DNA from: Desulfosoma sp.
GTDB taxonomy: Bacteria; Desulfobacterota; Syntrophobacteria; Syntrophobacterales; DSM-9756
DNA: 64,000 nt
Direction of reading: 5' to 3'
Assembly: GCA_037481835.1 (NCBI GenBank)
Contig: JBBFKW010000017.1
Coordinates: 1 to 64,000, forward strand
Positions within the stretch are counted from its first letter, which is position 1; each line of letters opens with the position of its first letter. Both the position numbers and the translations under genes were made by a program. Below, piece after piece: positions 1-3,112 of the stretch. The notes beneath the pieces were generated by a model. The model saw only the letters and a program-made list of their open reading frames with translations, was not told the origin of the DNA and made no database searches.

Positions 1-85
1 AATGGTGCTCAGGAAAGAGGGAAAAGCTTAAAAATGCTTAAGTCAACAGCATTGGCCTACGCCGGCCCCCGGGCCGAGGTGCGGC

Positions 86-595
86 TCACGATCCCGGGGC
101 GTCCCCGGGATCGTCCGGGAGCCGCTGGATAAAGCGAAGCACCCTCTCGCGGTGCCTGAGTCCCAGGGGCGTCAGCAGCTTGGTGGCGTGCTCGCCGAAA
201 AAGTCCTGGAGAAACGCCTTCAGCTTGGCCGCATCGCGCGCCAGGCTCTGGTGCTTTTCGATCCACCGGCCCACTGCCGACTCTAGGCTTCGAACCTTTT
301 CCTCCGCGGCTCGCTGTTGTTCCTCCACCTCCCGTTGGATCTCCTGGAAGGCCTCCGCGAGCCACTCCGCTTCCCGGCGGAAAGTTTCCACCCCCTGAGC
401 CATCATGGCCGCTTGGGCCTCCATGTGCCGTCCGTATTTTTCCCACTCGGCTCTTCCCCGAAGGGCGGCTTCCAGTTTTTGTTCCAGCCGGCGCGCGTAG
501 GCTTCCACCCGGGCCACGTATTCGGCCGCGTCCCGATGGTGACATTCATTGATCCAATAGCCCATGAGGGCCATCTGAAACGGATGAGGAAACAT
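86..595 (-). CDS. Hypothetical coiled-coil protein (169 aa), second gene of the ARPP-1 operon
   Basis: AGGAGG RBS overlaps the TAG stop of the upstream gene; E/A/R/Q-rich helical sequence (EAYARRLEQKLEAAL...EIQREVEEQQRAAEEKVRSLE); no family recognised. Confidence 0.75.
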   Translation of the reverse strand: MFPHPFQMALMGYWINECHHRDAAEYVARVEAYARRLEQKLEAALRGRAEWEKYGRHMEAQAAMMAQGVETFRREAEWLAEAFQEIQREVEEQQRAAEEKVRSLESAVGRWIEKHQSLARDAAKLKAFLQDFFGEHATKLLTPLGLRHRERVLRFIQRLPDDPGDAPGS

Positions 596-607
596 GATCC
601 CAACCTC

Positions 608-1633
608 CTATTCGCCCCGGTTGCGACGGTTGAAGGACCGACGACGATCCGCCGCCGAAAGCCTTCGAACACCCCGGGAGGAATCCGGACGGCGGCCGGA
701 AAGTTCCTTGGGAAAGCAGGAAAAGTGCACGAGCCGCTCGTTCCACACCAAACCGGACCCGATGAGGCGGCGACTTTCCAGGCGCACATCCCGACCGGCC
801 CCCGGCGAATCAAACACTTCCACGGGCGTCTCGAGCACCGAATCCCACCACCCTTGGACTGACTTCCGGCGCCGGCGCACCTCGACCTCCGAAAAGGCCA
901 CCTCGAAGGCGAAGCTCTTCAGGATCTTTTCGAACGCCTTTTGAAAGAGCCCGGCGGATCCCAAGAGCTCGCATCCCAGAACCCCCTGTGGACCATAGAA
1001 CACGGCGCCCACCTGGGCTTCAACGGGCCTCAGGCCGTCCACGTAGCCTCTCATGTGTTCGTCCGCCCGCTCCCTCGCCGACCGGAAATCCCGCGTTCGG
1101 GATTCCGCCCCGGCTTCGGCCAAGGATTCGTCCACTTCCCGCCAGACGGCGTGCTGATCGCTGAAAAAAGCCCTCTCCCGGCGCAGGCTCTCCGTGACGC
1201 TCTCCTTGTGGCTCACGCGGGACTTGGCACGAAAGACCGCACGGCCCGCTTCGAAGTCGGCCCGGCTCTGACGCCACCGGCCCGCCTCCATGCAGGAAAC
1301 CGGGATGGTGATCTCCCGGCCCGCCGGCACCAGGATGGTGGTGTTGACGATCCGGTTTTGATTGCCGCCCACAAGCTCTTCCCCGTCCAGGATGAGCACC
1401 GGGGATTCCCCTTCGTTCACGACCCGAAGGAAAGGCACCTGGCCCGATGCGCCGGTTTCCGTGATGTGAAAGAAACCCGCCTGGATCGCCTCTTCCACGA
1501 GCAGGATGCCGGAAAGGGACGGGACGGACCGCCCTTCCAGGATGGGGACCATCCCCAAAGCCTGGTGCGTTCTCGGGTCCCCCCAGACGAGATCTTCGGG
1601 AACAATGCTGTGAGCCGTAAGTCTTTTTTCCAT
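608..1633 (-). CDS. ARPP-1 / DUF6569 family protein
   Basis: Family-typical VPFLRVVNEGESPVLILDGEELVGGNQNRIVNTTILVPA...IPVSCMEAGRW and QHAVWREV motifs; strong RBS AAAGGAGG; Arg-rich C-terminal tail. Confidence 0.85.
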   Translation of the reverse strand: MEKRLTAHSIVPEDLVWGDPRTHQALGMVPILEGRSVPSLSGILLVEEAIQAGFFHITETGASGQVPFLRVVNEGESPVLILDGEELVGGNQNRIVNTTILVPAGREITIPVSCMEAGRWRQSRADFEAGRAVFRAKSRVSHKESVTESLRRERAFFSDQHAVWREVDESLAEAGAESRTRDFRSARERADEHMRGYVDGLRPVEAQVGAVFYGPQGVLGCELLGSAGLFQKAFEKILKSFAFEVAFSEVEVRRRRKSVQGWWDSVLETPVEVFDSPGAGRDVRLESRRLIGSGLVWNERLVHFSCFPKELSGRRPDSSRGVRRLSAADRRRSFNRRNRGE

Positions 1634-1734
1634 GGCGTCCTCCTTTCTCCCTCCGGCCGCCGGGCCCGCTTCACCCCGGCCGACTCCGGATCGGCCGCGG
1701 GACCGTGAAACCGAGGGGCTGCGTTGTTAGGGTG

Positions 1735-1768
1735 AACCTACCCTGACCCCCTGTCATTTCGTGTCAGG
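1735..1768 (-). promoter_or_regulatory. Candidate WYL-activator-type promoter (TGACA-N5-TGACAG-N10-TAGGTT)
   Basis: Minus strand reads CCTGACACGAAATGACAGGGGGTCAGGGTAGGTT; spacing matches the PafBC-type TGTCGG-N10-TAnnnT layout; no canonical -35. Confidence 0.4.
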
Positions 1769-1994
1769 CCGTGAACATTTTCTTGAAAAATTTATTCGTC
1801 ATGGCATTTCAGGCGGTTATCGGACCCAAAGGCGGGGAGGAGGCGTGGGTGGGAGGGATTTTTTTCTCAAGGCGAAACCTTTTCCGGCCGAATCCCGGAC
1901 CAGAGAAGGACTATAACGTTTTCCTGAACGGGATAATCGCCGGGCACCGTCCGCGTGGTTGCGGGCCGCATTCGTGCGACCAAGAGGTCGCGGC

Positions 1995-2067
1995 GGGCGG
2001 GGATAAACCCCGCCCCTACTCCAAAGGCCCCATCGGCTCTTGCAGGGGCGGACTTCGTGCACGCCCC
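1995..2067. repeat. GTAG-type REP pair (GTAGGGGCGGGGTTTATCCCCGCCC on minus strand plus degenerate partner)
   Basis: Palindromic GGGCGGGG-ataaa-CCCCGCCC followed by CTAC; related copy at 63887-63908. Confidence 0.65.
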
Positions 2068-2128
2068 GCGTCCATCCCGTGGCCGTCTCTTCAGGCCCGG
2101 GGCGCCTTCTCCGCTTTGATGCACTGGG

Positions 2129-2420
2129 TCACGCCAGCGAAAACAGGTTCAACACCACCCTGCCCACGAACGGGATGCGGTAATCCACCATCCACAGCAT
2201 GCCCCCCACGGCCGGGATCACCACGGCGGCGATGTTGTTGATGGTGAATCCCACGGGCATGCTGGGGGCGACATCCTTCGGGTCCGCAATCTTCTGGAAA
2301 TAGGTGCGGATAGCGATAGCGAAATTGTAGAAGATGTGATCCAGCACGTCCAGGGCGCCGGCCACCAGGGGGTTGCCGGTCAGGGCGTAACCCGGGAAGA
2401 TAAAGGCGATGACCGCACAT
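2129..2420 (-). pseudogene. C-terminal fragment of an MFS transporter
   Basis: Hydrophobic ...LDHIFYNFAIAIRTYFQKIADPKDVAPSMPVGFTINNIAAVVIPAVGGMLWMVDYRIPF...; N-terminus missing, replaced by IS debris. Confidence 0.7.
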
Positions 2421-2725
2421 TCTACTGGCGTTGAGCTGCTGGAGACCGTCCACGGTCCCGTAACGGAGCTTCCTACGGGCGACGTGGCTCTGGACGTGGA
2501 TGTTTTTCGCGTGGACAATTCCAAGACCCAAAAAGAGGGCGTTTCTTGAACCTCCCAGGGCTACGACGGCTATGCGCCCATTGGGCCCTCCCTGGGATCG
2601 GAGCGATGGTGCCTCGGAGGGGAGCTGCGGGAGGGAAGTCAGCATTTCAAGAACGGGTTTGTGCCTTTCTTGCGAGGGGTTTTGGGCAACGCCCGCCGAT
2701 TGACCGAAAAACCCCTTCTTGTGAA
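2421..2725 (+). mobile_element. IS1380-family transposase remnant (internal stop; absent from ORF track)
   Basis: Frame from 2421 reads ...ALDVDVFRVDNSKTQKEGVS*TSQGYDGYAPIGPSLGSERWCLGGELREGSQHFKNGFVPFLRGVLGNARRLTEKPLLV, resembling the IS1380 DDE N-terminal region. Confidence 0.7.
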
Positions 2726-2744
2726 CGTAGCGTCACTCCAGGAC

Positions 2745-2952
2745 TTTCATCCTTTGTTGTCTCGTCCAGCGTGATTTCATAATTTCTTGCCTCCTTGGAT
2801 CTAGATCTGAGTTGGGGTTCGCTTCGCTCACCCCAACCTACGAGTTTATTCCAGGATGTTGGACGGCGAATGTGGGATGGGGTGAGCGCAGCGTACCTCA
2901 ACAAAAATCGAGGATGCGGTTGCGTGTCGCGGTGTCGCAACAAAGGATGAAA
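2745..2952. repeat. MITE-like element with 15-bp terminal inverted repeats enclosing a GTAG-type REP doublet
   Basis: TTTCATCCTTTGTTG (2745-2759) / CAACAAAGGATGAAA (2938-2952); internal REPs at 2811-2841 and 2872-2902. Confidence 0.7.
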
Positions 2953-3035
2953 CTCGAACCCCGGGGGCAGCTTTGGCATTATCGGTTGTAGGAGACGGAT
3001 TGGGATTGCTCCCGCGGCAAAGGCCTTGATTTTCT

Positions 3036-3112
3036 TGGCGCGCCTGGGAGGATTCGAACCCCCGACCCGCGGATTAGAAGTCCGCTGCTCTGTCCTCCTG
3101 AGCTACAGGCGC
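3036..3112 (-). tRNA. tRNA-Arg (anticodon TCT)
   Basis: Reverse complement GCGCCTGTAGCTCAGGAGGACAGAGCAGCGGACTTCTAATCCGCGGGTCGGGGGTTCGAATCCTCCCAGGCGCGCCA; cloverleaf with encoded CCA. Confidence 0.97.

Follow-up and report, generated by a model that had tools for sequence, protein, structure and literature searches.

The two minus-strand genes at positions 86 to 1633 of the window, the whole 64,000-nucleotide stretch of Desulfosoma DNA analyzed here, are the first two of six genes in an operon, its first third, and in related loci this operon runs in the order ARPP-1, coiled-coil gene 2, peptidase, ORF-A, ORF-B, and ARG-HEAT. With a probability of about 60%, the local pair is the remnant of a conflict operon centered on an ADP-ribosylglycohydrolase (ARG), damaged in this genome by an IS element and by deletion of ARG-HEAT. 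We infer the function of the operon from gene context alone. An ARG gene ends the orthologous operons, so the link to ADP-ribosyl processing that an earlier, sequence-only reading of the pair had proposed is borne out. The self-contained two-gene operon of that reading gives way to six genes in the relatives, and no finding here points to damaged RNA, which it had also named as a target.

Gene 1 (positions 608 to 1633, minus strand) is a full-length open reading frame of 341 amino acids and codes for ARPP-1 (PF20208, DUF6569). This assignment had been made from motifs and is upheld by a Pfam profile search that aligns residues 16 to 307 end to end with positions 3 to 297 of the 297-position profile (E value of 2.4e-78; 263.9 bits against a cutoff of 27). 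The quoted motifs LDGEELVGGNQNR, VSCMEAGRW, and QHAVW and the Arg-rich tail (residues 308 to 341) are all found in the product. The gene is preceded by a GGAGG ribosome-binding site (RBS) at 1639 to 1643, 5 nt before the ATG at 1633, in the context AAAGGAGGA. An alignment of 60 ARPP-1 homologs contains 36 invariant columns, among them C114, C306, Q92, N93, R94, Q160, and Q207, and the window protein carries all 36. Residues 323 to 332 form a conserved basic tail, RR[AL]S[AV]xxRRR, set apart by a variable linker. The AlphaFold2 model is confident (pLDDT of 87, pTM of 0.85) and predicts strand-rich regions at residues 21 to 133, 207 to 224, and 270 to 308 with helices in between. We found no solved structure that the predicted whole chain resembles: Foldseek against the PDB gives no match at an E value of ≤0.001, and VIA-align against 48,161 chains gives none at a Z score of ≥5, the best reaching 4.3 over 41 residues. 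The BFVD viral library likewise yields no match to the whole model at an E value of ≤0.001, and the defense-system models of PADLOC-DB 2.0 include no family for ARPP-1. Literature searches found nothing for DUF6569, only the unrelated ARPP-16/19 for ARPP-1 with rhodanese-phosphatase, and no published experiments on ARPP or ARG-centered systems; PMC13069673, in its accessible part, deals with another ARG and not with that of these systems.

Gene 2 (positions 86 to 595, minus strand) encodes a 169-residue coiled-coil protein. Its GGAGG (604 to 608) lies 8 nt before the ATG at 595 and shares base 608 with ARPP-1, whose stop codon TAG (608 to 610) has its G there; from this overlap, gene 2 is predicted to be translationally coupled to ARPP-1. 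Both reading frames and both RBSs, including this overlap, had been read correctly from the letters. The same 12-nt gap between the two genes is found in the metagenome loci L040, L042, and L043. The two ends of the protein are conserved, with MFPHPFQMALMGYW as the N-terminal motif and AKLKAFLQDFFG..LLTPLG..VLRFIQRLPDDP as the C-terminal module, and the helical middle differs in length across the family. The AlphaFold2 model (pLDDT of 88) shows one predicted helix over residues 5 to 133, followed by two short C-terminal helices. Pfam, NCBIfam, and PADLOC return only subthreshold coiled-coil noise, and PHROGs return nothing at an E value of ≤0.001. The weak similarity to JetC, ZorA, and DndD in PADLOC-DB 2.0 (best E value of 5.6e-4) is of the coiled-coil type and covers the helical middle only, and an atlas search gives a top feature score of 0.87 with no usable match. 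Gene 2 had been called an orphan; it belongs instead to a small unannotated family, with nine relatives outside this genome at 51 to 89% identity and 26 cluster representatives (E value of ≤1e-3) among 1.84 billion proteins. A pattern search of the genome contigs for gene 2 gave 126 pattern matches, none of them confirmed.

Close relatives of gene 2 adjoin ARPP-1, as co-occurrence of the two would have it, in all six judgeable loci: the window, a second copy on contig C32 of the same genome, the congener G002, and L040, L042, and L043. L041 is left out of this count because it begins within gene 2. The order is inverted in G002, where the gene 2 relative lies between ARPP-1 and a WYL-WCX regulator. 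ARPP-1 is absent from all seven loci of more distant family members, and gene 2 therefore need not have ARPP-1 as its partner; in G479, relatives of gene 2 and ORF-A are neighbors of each other and of genes for a KAP NTPase and a Prim-Pol, with no ARPP-1. A complex prediction for ARPP-1 and gene 2 (score of 0.00, mark of 0.32) is uninformative both ways.

The operon runs on past ARPP-1 and gene 2 in L040, L042, and L043. In all three same-order loci with ARPP-1 from other samples, the peptidase, ORF-A, and ARG genes then follow on the same strand, and ORF-B is detected in two of the three. Gene 3 codes for an M28/M20-like dizinc peptidase of the MH clan of ∼245 amino acids. Its atlas features (score of 0.98, 232 of 256 in common) and a TM score of 0.87 to an M28 cluster agree with a match to a PHROG peptidase family (E value of 4.5e-23); the Pfam M28 model gives 17.7 to 20.6 bits, under the cutoff of 21.3. 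The motifs HADTV, GADDRAG, TDGEEKG, and EHS, which we take to carry the zinc ligands, line up with their counterparts in peptidase T (3gb0). The protein resembles a short phage-borne branch of the peptidase T/M20-M28-M42 enzymes in having HxD, GxDD, EE, and H, presumably the motifs for metal binding and catalysis in the MH clan, and in matching phage peptidase families, but unlike the dizinc peptidases of this clan it has no lid or dimerization domain. Gene 4 (ORF-A) codes for ∼126 residues and gene 5 (the zinc-ribbon ORF-B) for ∼212 residues with four CxxC pairs. Gene 6 (ARG-HEAT) codes for ∼1056 residues comprising an ADP-ribosylglycohydrolase domain and HEAT repeats.

The ARG gene is found downstream in L040, L041, L042, and L043, and the ARG domain of the orthologs scores 127.5 to 128.8 bits with the Pfam model PF03747 (cutoff of 26.2). 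No ADP-ribosyltransferase or sirtuin occurs among the scanned neighbors in the orthologous loci, and in L042 and L043 the ARG stands without such a coupled gene. The hydrolases nearest to the ARG domain of L043 are DraG (TIGR02662, 69 bits) and Tri1 (NF041672, 50 bits). However, their equivalog cutoffs of 337 and 490 are far from reached, ARG-HEAT is three times longer, and the ARG gene is missing from the operon copy in this genome. The scanned open reading frames of the window, L040, L042, and L043 include no Nudix or WYL repressor. Phosphatase and the vWA, SseB, and TY chaperones have no Pfam matches in L040, L042, and L043, TY-Chap being without a testable Pfam model, and no locus has a rhodanese-phosphatase by Pfam, with ∼600 residues of ARG-HEAT unassigned.

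In this genome, the operon copy is degraded, being split by an IS and deleted for ARG-HEAT apart from 74 codons. The window begins at a contig end because an IS4-family element is inserted 20 nt after the stop codon of gene 2, in intergenic DNA. The last 54 nt of the element occupy positions 1 to 54, with the right 18-bp terminal inverted repeat at 37 to 54, and contig C38 and the terminal part of contig C10 carry the remainder. The element measures 1545 bp, has perfect 18-bp inverted repeats, and encodes a transposase matching NF033592 (IS4 family, 175.6 bits against a cutoff of 115) and DDE_Tnp_1. An 11-bp target-site duplication, GCCTACGCCGG, is found at positions 55 to 65, and its partner copy (C10:172143-172153) directly precedes the left end of the IS. 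The same IS elsewhere in the genome, at the contig pairs C2/C18 and C13/C11, likewise has matching 11-bp duplications. Contig-end overlaps of 50 nt connect the end of C10 to C38 and C38 to the start of C17; the C10-IS-C17 join is deduced from these assembly ends, no single read or contig running across it. Assembled contigs of four DNA runs cover the stretch, one of them (2516 nt) spanning positions 26 to 2200 with the IS end included; among these contigs there is no demonstrated bridge to the C10 side, and an uninterrupted form is neither seen nor excluded.

The partner genes that had been suspected to the left of the window are found at the end of C10. Genes 3, 4, and 5 are intact there, with 76 to 78%, 72 to 73%, and 57 to 58% amino acid identity to L042/L043, and nucleotide homology to these loci extends to ∼4 nt from the duplication. 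ARG-HEAT is reduced to a 74-codon remnant, in which only residues 334 to 407 are matched, and an AcrB-like gene on the opposite strand comes next. The 99.4%-complete assembly contains no further ARG-HEAT ortholog, and the remaining two ARG genes both lie elsewhere in the genome (C21:474-1295 and C10:34648-35475). The intactness claimed for the pair thus holds for the two open reading frames and fails for the operon. The insertion and the deletion would also be expected if the locus were a dead relic whose open frames have not yet decayed. Two decayed pieces of ARPP-1 elsewhere in this genome (C20:45105-45551 and C14:123846-124130), the truncated gene 2 on C32, and the IS and repeat debris around the locus fit such a relic, as does the small divergence between the two ARPP-1 copies, in which selection is not demonstrable. 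Five of the six genes are, however, full length with all conserved motifs, ARPP-1 is intact in two copies, and the insertion is intergenic; we regard a dead relic as unlikely but credible.

The second copy corresponds to window positions 308 to 1914 (minus strand). Contig C32 matches positions 417 to 1914 at 98.2% and positions 308 to 363 at 92.9%, with 42 bases fewer between the two pieces. ARPP-1 is retained on C32 with three amino acid differences; the copies differ at six codons (three synonymous, three not), too few to show selection between them. Gene 2 of C32 is truncated to 115 amino acids. Upstream of ARPP-1, a 19-nt element, CTGACACGAAATGACAGGG (TGACA-N5-TGACA), is located at positions 1749 to 1767 (minus strand), 116 to 134 nt from the start codon, and is present in all four aligned loci (window, C32, L040, and L043). 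More copies in this genome lie upstream of an ArdC-like gene and two AAA+ ATPase genes, and the element may act as an operator or within the promoter. A sigma-54 promoter pattern and a sigma-70 scan give no site upstream of ARPP-1, and a terminator scan gives two terminator-like matches, both within genes and fewer than in shuffled sequence.

The retention of the upstream region and the 19-nt element in both copies favors another reading, in which ARPP-1 and the coiled coil form a self-contained working module, induced by stress or invasion through this element and in no need of ARG or the downstream genes. The intact and apparently coupled frames agree with it, and the IS is located past gene 2, so that expression of the first two genes need not be affected. 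PF03747 is absent near ARPP-1 in all nine relatives' loci (71 of 117 picked open reading frames scanned), and ARPP-1 therefore need not work with ARG. In these loci the neighbor of ARPP-1 is a WYL-WCX regulator (four of nine) or a sigma-54 activator (three of nine), and a two-gene ARPP-WYL neighborhood is given in the accessible part of PMC9503650. The self-contained module is nevertheless improbable: the peptidase, ORF-A, and ARG genes follow the pair in every same-order locus and ORF-B in two of three, the truncation of gene 2 beside a kept ARPP-1 on C32 means that the two genes are not kept as a pair, and this genome has no adjacent regulator gene. WYL, ARG, macro, or AAA genes had been suggested as telling neighbors; no WYL, macro, or AAA gene adjoins the pair here, the closest WYL-like match in this genome being on contig C12. 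WYL or sigma-54 regulator genes flank ARPP-1 at seven of the nine relatives' loci.

The distribution of the genes is patchy, as the earlier description of accessory DNA implied. PF20208 is present in 14 of 61 relatives and in one of three congeners and absent from all 14 control genomes, and gene 2 has a credible match in 2 of the 61 relatives. The only congener with both genes is G002, where the chromosomal context differs. A tRNA-Arg(TCT) gene at positions 3036 to 3112 (minus strand) places ARPP-1 and gene 2 on its 3′ side, with repeat and IS debris in between (∼1915 to 3035). In this genome, the genes found beside tRNA-Arg in G001 and G002 are on contig C18; there is no synteny with the congeners in the tRNA-Arg flank, and the locus is accessory, not core. 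A core role for the pair, in housekeeping or in the general stress response of the lineage, is extremely improbable given these counts and contexts, since nothing beyond the position near lysS and tRNA-Arg speaks for it. No repeat of at least 13 nt of the tRNA-Arg gene, as expected of attL/attR, is found in window positions 1 to 3030 or the C10 tail, and no integrase is seen. The labels MFS and IS1380 given to the neighboring DNA are not confirmed: two open reading frames there, at 2129 to 2524 and 2091 to 2645, match no Pfam family at an E value of ≤0.01, and the only IS that could be typed (window 1 to 54 and C38) belongs to the IS4 family.

The six-gene operon is a variant of the ARPP-containing, ARG-centered conflict systems that Iyer, Burroughs, Anantharaman, and Aravind have predicted (Viruses 2022;14:1977; PMC9503650), as these are described in the accessible part of that paper. 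There, a Nudix- or WYL-type one-component repressor is optional (∼42% of systems), a coupled phosphatase occurs in ∼55%, and vWA, SseB, and TY-Chap1-3 are given as peptide-binding chaperones. Measured against this partial description, the shared features are the invariant Cys and Gln of ARPP-1, orthologous operons with a same-strand ARG and no ADP-ribosyltransferase or sirtuin among the scanned neighbors, and a patchy distribution with varying accessory genes in a mobile or defense-island setting. In contrast to those systems, again as far as the accessible text goes, the same-order loci have no detected Nudix/WYL repressor, phosphatase, or TY/vWA/SseB chaperone, the ARG carries a fusion of ∼700 more residues with HEAT repeats, and the copy in this genome is ARG deleted and IS split. 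The coiled coil, the M28/M20-like peptidase, ORF-A, and the zinc-ribbon ORF-B are not named in section 3.8 of PMC9503650. The ARPP-WYL neighborhood of the same partial source has its likeness in the four of nine relatives' loci, G002 among them, in which WYL-WCX adjoins ARPP-1, but the window copy has no nearby WYL gene. Antiphage activity, which the sequence-only reading had raised as possible, may be expected by analogy with the accessible part of this computational paper.

Under the preferred reading of a damaged ARG-centered operon, the intact system would remove or process ADP-ribose adducts placed by invaders. ARPP-1 would bind or attack the ribose or ADP-ribose moiety through the pocket of the invariant Cys114, and the gene 2 product would probably serve as a dimeric adaptor, its synthesis keeping pace with that of ARPP-1. 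Lacking the ARG, the copy in this genome would at most sense or bind the modification and not reverse it. A far-reaching extension would make the system a decoy-based sensor of foreign ADP-ribosylation. In it, the ARPP-1 tail RR[AL]S[AV]xxRRR would serve as bait for ADP-ribosyltransferases of invaders, and the Cys114/Gln pocket of the same protein would read or capture the ADP-ribose. The coiled coil and ORF-A would be a portable adaptor pair, used for other mobile-element modules as well, and the 19-nt element would place the operon in a regulon with the mobile-element ArdC-like and AAA+ genes. Taken jointly, the bait tail, the adaptor pair, and the shared regulon are very improbable.

ARPP-1 is widespread and has an invariant Cys and Gln, and the literature search found no tested function for it. 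For annotation, the locus shows clearly how an IS within a conflict operon can break a contig. The local pair is recognized as one piece of a larger operon of six defined genes, intact versions of which, L042 and L043, could be cloned and tested. Four unannotated partner families, namely, the coiled coil, a short phage-type M28/M20-like peptidase, ORF-A, and ORF-B, are added to the predicted ARG-centered systems, and the conserved upstream element, common to other mobile-element genes, could lead to the regulator.

Two minus-strand genes of the window, encoding an ARPP-1 protein (gene 1, 608-1633, 341 amino acids) and a coiled-coil protein (gene 2, 86-595, 169 amino acids), form the head of a six-gene operon variant centered on an ADP-ribosylglycohydrolase (ARG), and the copy in this genome is split by an insertion sequence (IS) and has lost its ARG. 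The assignment of gene 1 to ARPP-1 in the sequence-only reading was sound and correct: the protein matches the whole Pfam profile PF20208 with 263.9 bits (cut-off 27; E 2.4e-78) and has no family in NCBIfam, PADLOC or PHROG. The region AAAGGAGGA, five bases 5' of the ATG, contains its ribosome-binding site. Alignment with 60 homologues (40-82% identity) shows that 36 of 36 invariant columns are retained, among them E59, G84-E85, Q92-N93-R94, P111-V112-S113-C114, R119-W120, Q160, W164 and C306. C-terminal to the Pfam domain, a variable linker leads to a basic tail with the conserved pattern RR[AL]S[AV]xxRRR, in which R324 is kept in 55, S326 in 43, R330 in 56 and R331 in 52 of the 60 homologues; the Arg-rich tail noticed earlier is therefore characteristic of the family. 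The AlphaFold2 model is confident (pLDDT 87, pTM 0.85), and as a whole it finds no match in the PDB with Foldseek (E <= 0.001), none among 48,161 chains with VIA-align (Z >= 5) and none among the BFVD viral models (E <= 0.001).

Gene 2 follows ARPP-1 after a gap of 12 nt, with one base of its GGAGG (604-608) shared with the TAG stop codon of ARPP-1. Searches of Pfam, NCBIfam and PADLOC with the protein return sub-threshold coiled-coil noise only, and PHROG gives no match at E <= 0.001. The structure model consists of a single helix over residues 5-133, followed by two short helices. The protein had been described as an orphan, which does not hold: a word-indexed search yields 11 proteins, namely, itself, a truncated second copy and 9 relatives from elsewhere with 51-89% identity, one of them a Desulfacinum infernum record, and a profile search against 1.84 billion representative sequences finds 26 proteins with E <= 1e-3, of which 5 have E <= 1e-10 and 2 have E <= 1e-30. 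About fifteen of these 26, with lengths of 153-176 amino acids, align end to end and keep M-x-P-H-P-x-x-M-A at the N terminus and L-P at the C terminus. In the gene 2 alignment, the N-terminal motif MFPHPFQMALMGYW is invariant and the C-terminal module AKLKAFLQDFFG..LLTPLG..VLRFIQRLPDDP is conserved; the helical middle varies through insertions, deletions and a tandem duplication. The family is real, though rare. Of 96 genomes of the order, 9 show a match at E <= 1e-6.

The extent of the operon can be seen in four metagenome loci that encode close relatives of gene 2. In the three loci with upstream DNA (L040, L042 and L043), an ARPP-1 of 341-355 amino acids precedes gene 2 with the 12-nt gap kept, and a protein of 245-280 amino acids is encoded downstream on the same strand, so the pair in the window is not the two-gene module that had been proposed. 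The 245-residue protein is identified as an MH-clan dizinc peptidase domain. In the Atlas it reaches a features score of 0.98 (232/256 shared) and a TM score of 0.87 to an M28 cluster, and the neighboring clusters are mostly phage borne; it also matches the PHROG family "peptidase" (E 4.5e-23) and, under the cut-off of that family, the NCBIfam PepT-like family (E 7e-8). Its motifs HADTV, GADDRAG, TDGEEKG and EHS, which we take to be the carriers of the metal ligands, align with their counterparts in peptidase T (3gb0; E 0.003). Next on the same strand is ORF-A (∼126 residues), with the N terminus MWIFTEDGFLSVVRHR and a strong ribosome-binding site, and then ORF-B (∼212 residues), with four CxxC pairs and a start that overlaps the stop of ORF-A; L040 showed no ORF-B. 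Neither ORF belongs to a Pfam, NCBIfam or PHROG family. In L042 and L043, the same strand then encodes an ARG of 1,056-1,059 amino acids (ARG-HEAT), which combines an ADP_ribosyl_GH domain (127.5-128.8 bits; cut-off 26.2) with HEAT repeats at its C terminus. The ARG gene of L040 is fragmented, and the fourth locus, L041, shows the order gene 2, ORF-B stub and a 323-residue ARG.

In the genome under study, the downstream genes are found on another contig, C10. Nucleotides 1-54 of the window, which comprises the first 64 kb of contig C17, are the end of a 1,545-bp element with perfect 18-bp inverted repeats and a 435-residue IS4-family transposase. Contig C38 forms the body of this element; it shares ∼50 nt at its start with the end of C10, and its own end overlaps C17 at the beginning of that contig. 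The 11 nt GCCTACGCCGG are identical on the left (C10:172143-172153) and right (C17:55-65) of the element. Outward from the element, C10 carries intact genes for the peptidase (C10:171231-171998; 76-78% identical to L042 and L043), ORF-A (C10:170838-171218) and ORF-B (C10:170203-170841), and nucleotide homology to L042 and L043 starts ∼4 nt from the duplication. The junction together with this homology therefore places the element in the spacer between gene 2 and the peptidase gene, 20 nt past the gene 2 stop codon. We infer the join of C10 and C17 through the element from assembly ends and not from a read that crosses it; in four public DNA runs, the stretch is covered by contigs, one of which enters the end of the element, and a connection to C10 was shown by none of them. 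The 11-bp duplications of C2/C18 and of C13/C11 match these contigs to each other in the same manner. Of ARG-HEAT, only 74 codons matching residues 334-407 are left on C10; the next gene is AcrB-like and has the opposite orientation. No further ARG-HEAT ortholog was found in the 99.4% complete assembly, in which two other PF03747 genes lie in unrelated contexts. As a separate observation, at least four assembly breaks (the ends of C2/C18, C13/C11, C10/C17 and C6) are copies of the same IS4-family element, and pairing three of them via the 11-bp target duplications would allow the assembly to be scaffolded.

Additional copies and remnants occur in the same genome. Contig C32 matches window positions 417-1914 with 98.2% identity and 308-363 with 92.9% identity; its ARPP-1 differs in 3 residues, and its gene 2 has an internal deletion followed by divergence, leaving 115 amino acids. 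In one public DNA run (X1), the summed contig depth over window positions 297-1924 is ∼130-300, compared to 44-50 in the flanks (three to six times), and the C32-type copy is thus commoner than the chromosome; it may be multicopy or derive from another strain in the bin. Decayed ARPP-1 fragments are located at C20:45105-45551 and C14:123846-124130. The latter, a C-terminal fragment, is joined to a decayed ARG-HEAT fragment (C14:123846-124644) on the 3' side of tRNA-Arg(ACG) (C14:124911-124987), so debris of the same system lies at two tRNA-Arg genes. The other, tRNA-Arg(TCT), adjoins lysS in 5/5 relatives; its 3' flank in the congeners G001 and G002 holds other genes, found here at C18:5463-12403. 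Neither a tRNA-derived direct repeat nor an integrase was found. Two repeats also occur in the window. The stretch at 2426-2724 recurs with ∼90% identity on C16 and C1 (∼300 nt) and with 87% identity over 195 nt on C13, adjoining an IS end; it probably represents a piece of some other mobile element, and the labels "IS1380" and "MFS" given to this area were not confirmed. The short repeat at 2797-2973 (core 2811-2842) resembles a MITE or REP-type element, with well over 100 full or partial copies, often clustered, on most contigs.

Alignment of the ARPP-1 upstream regions of the window, C32, L040 and L043 reveals an island of identity in all four, CTGACACG(A/G)AATGACAGGG, with the form TGACA-N5-TGACA. 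The 19-nt element CTGACACGAAATGACAGGG lies at window positions 1749-1767 on the minus strand, 116-134 nt 5' of the ARPP-1 ATG, and further copies are found at C33:1989-2007, C33:4395-4413, C30:3325-3343 and C32:906-924. An exact copy on C33 precedes a gene for an ArdC-like zincin, and copies with one and with three mismatches (C33 and C30) each precede a gene for a double-AAA+ ATPase of 755-758 residues; C30 and C32 are adjacent in the assembly graph. In 3.6 Mb, chance alone would not be expected to produce an exact 19-mer. The sequence upstream of ARPP-1 fits neither the sigma-54 nor the sigma-70 consensus, and the element may be an operator or an unusual promoter common to mobile-element cargo.

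Of 61 related genomes, 14 contain PF20208 (13 with scores above the cut-off); it is present in one of three congeners and in none of 14 control genomes. Credible gene 2 matches among the related genomes are limited to the genome under study and the congener G002, in which a relative with 31% identity over residues 1-159 lies upstream of ARPP-1 within a WYL-led gene row at a different chromosomal place. In that row, the gene for a 391-residue coiled-coil protein (L033:5404-6579) separates the WYL regulator from the relative of gene 2. This protein shows sub-threshold DUF1664 and DUF16 matches, and the genome under study contains seven or more paralogous matches to it (C6, C21, C24, C15, C1, C14 and C9). 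Nine loci of relatives with a full or split ARPP-1 were compared, with 71 of 117 picked ORFs scanned. A WYL-WCX regulator is divergent to or precedes ARPP-1 in four of the nine (L032, L033, L035 and L036), and a sigma-54 activator is divergent to it in three (L028 of G007, L030 of G057 and L031 of G037), with a DUF2130 gene downstream in two of these three. The N-terminal 200 residues of this enhancer-binding protein match no Pfam family. PF03747 is absent from the scanned ORFs of all nine loci; neighbors include SIR2_2, PLD, SNF2, Cap4 nuclease, microbial PARG, AbiEii and transposases.

Seven loci of the wider gene 2 family, from six other genomes and 7.6-13.5 kb each, contain ARPP-1 in no frame, with positive controls detected; the tight link between gene 2 and ARPP-1 therefore holds for the close subfamily and not for the whole family. 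Among the 49 of 86 picked ORFs scanned, neighbors include Prim-Pol, KAP NTPase, DUF3987, DNA methylases, SNF2-NOV_C helicase, ROS/MucR regulators and one ARG. For three distant or intermediate members, the longest contig equals in size that of an ARPP-1 match (95967, 33237 and 6712), which hints at, and does not prove, coresidence. In genome G479, a full-length gene 2 relative (hhalign 95.7%) and an ORF-A relative (35% identity; E 7e-16) are divergently oriented, and the coiled coil may thus form a portable pair with ORF-A. This locus (L054, G479:C1:3715000-3728500) lacks ARPP-1, and the two relatives have a KAP-family NTPase and a Prim-Pol/PriCT gene as neighbors.

Iyer, Burroughs, Anantharaman and Aravind (Viruses 2022;14:1977; PMC9503650) defined ARPP and noted that its Cys and Gln are absolutely conserved and that it is without relatives. 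According to those authors, the predicted ARG-centered systems often contain Nudix or WYL repressors, rhodanese-type or other phosphatases and peptide-binding chaperones, plus variable extras including ARPP, and two-gene ARPP contexts involve HIRAN, WYL or a deacetylase; the divergent pairing of sigma-54 activator and ARPP-1 is not among the contexts in section 3.8 of that paper. They predict that ARPP acts on ribose moieties, perhaps through an SRAP-like covalent link, and that ARG-centered systems reverse ADP-ribosylation by viral enzymes. The ARG of PMC13069673 is a DarG variant. Literature searches returned no experiments on ARPP, with only the unrelated eukaryotic ARPP-16/19 surfacing, and no papers for DUF6569.

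The kind of system was thus already predicted, and the additions made here are modest: four partner families that had no annotation, together with a candidate operator. An intact operon would process ADP-ribose adducts, with ARPP-1 engaging the sugar via Cys114 and the coiled coil serving as an adaptor that would be produced in step with it. From the local operon copy, ARPP-1 and its coiled-coil partner may still be made, but the ARG step is no longer possible.
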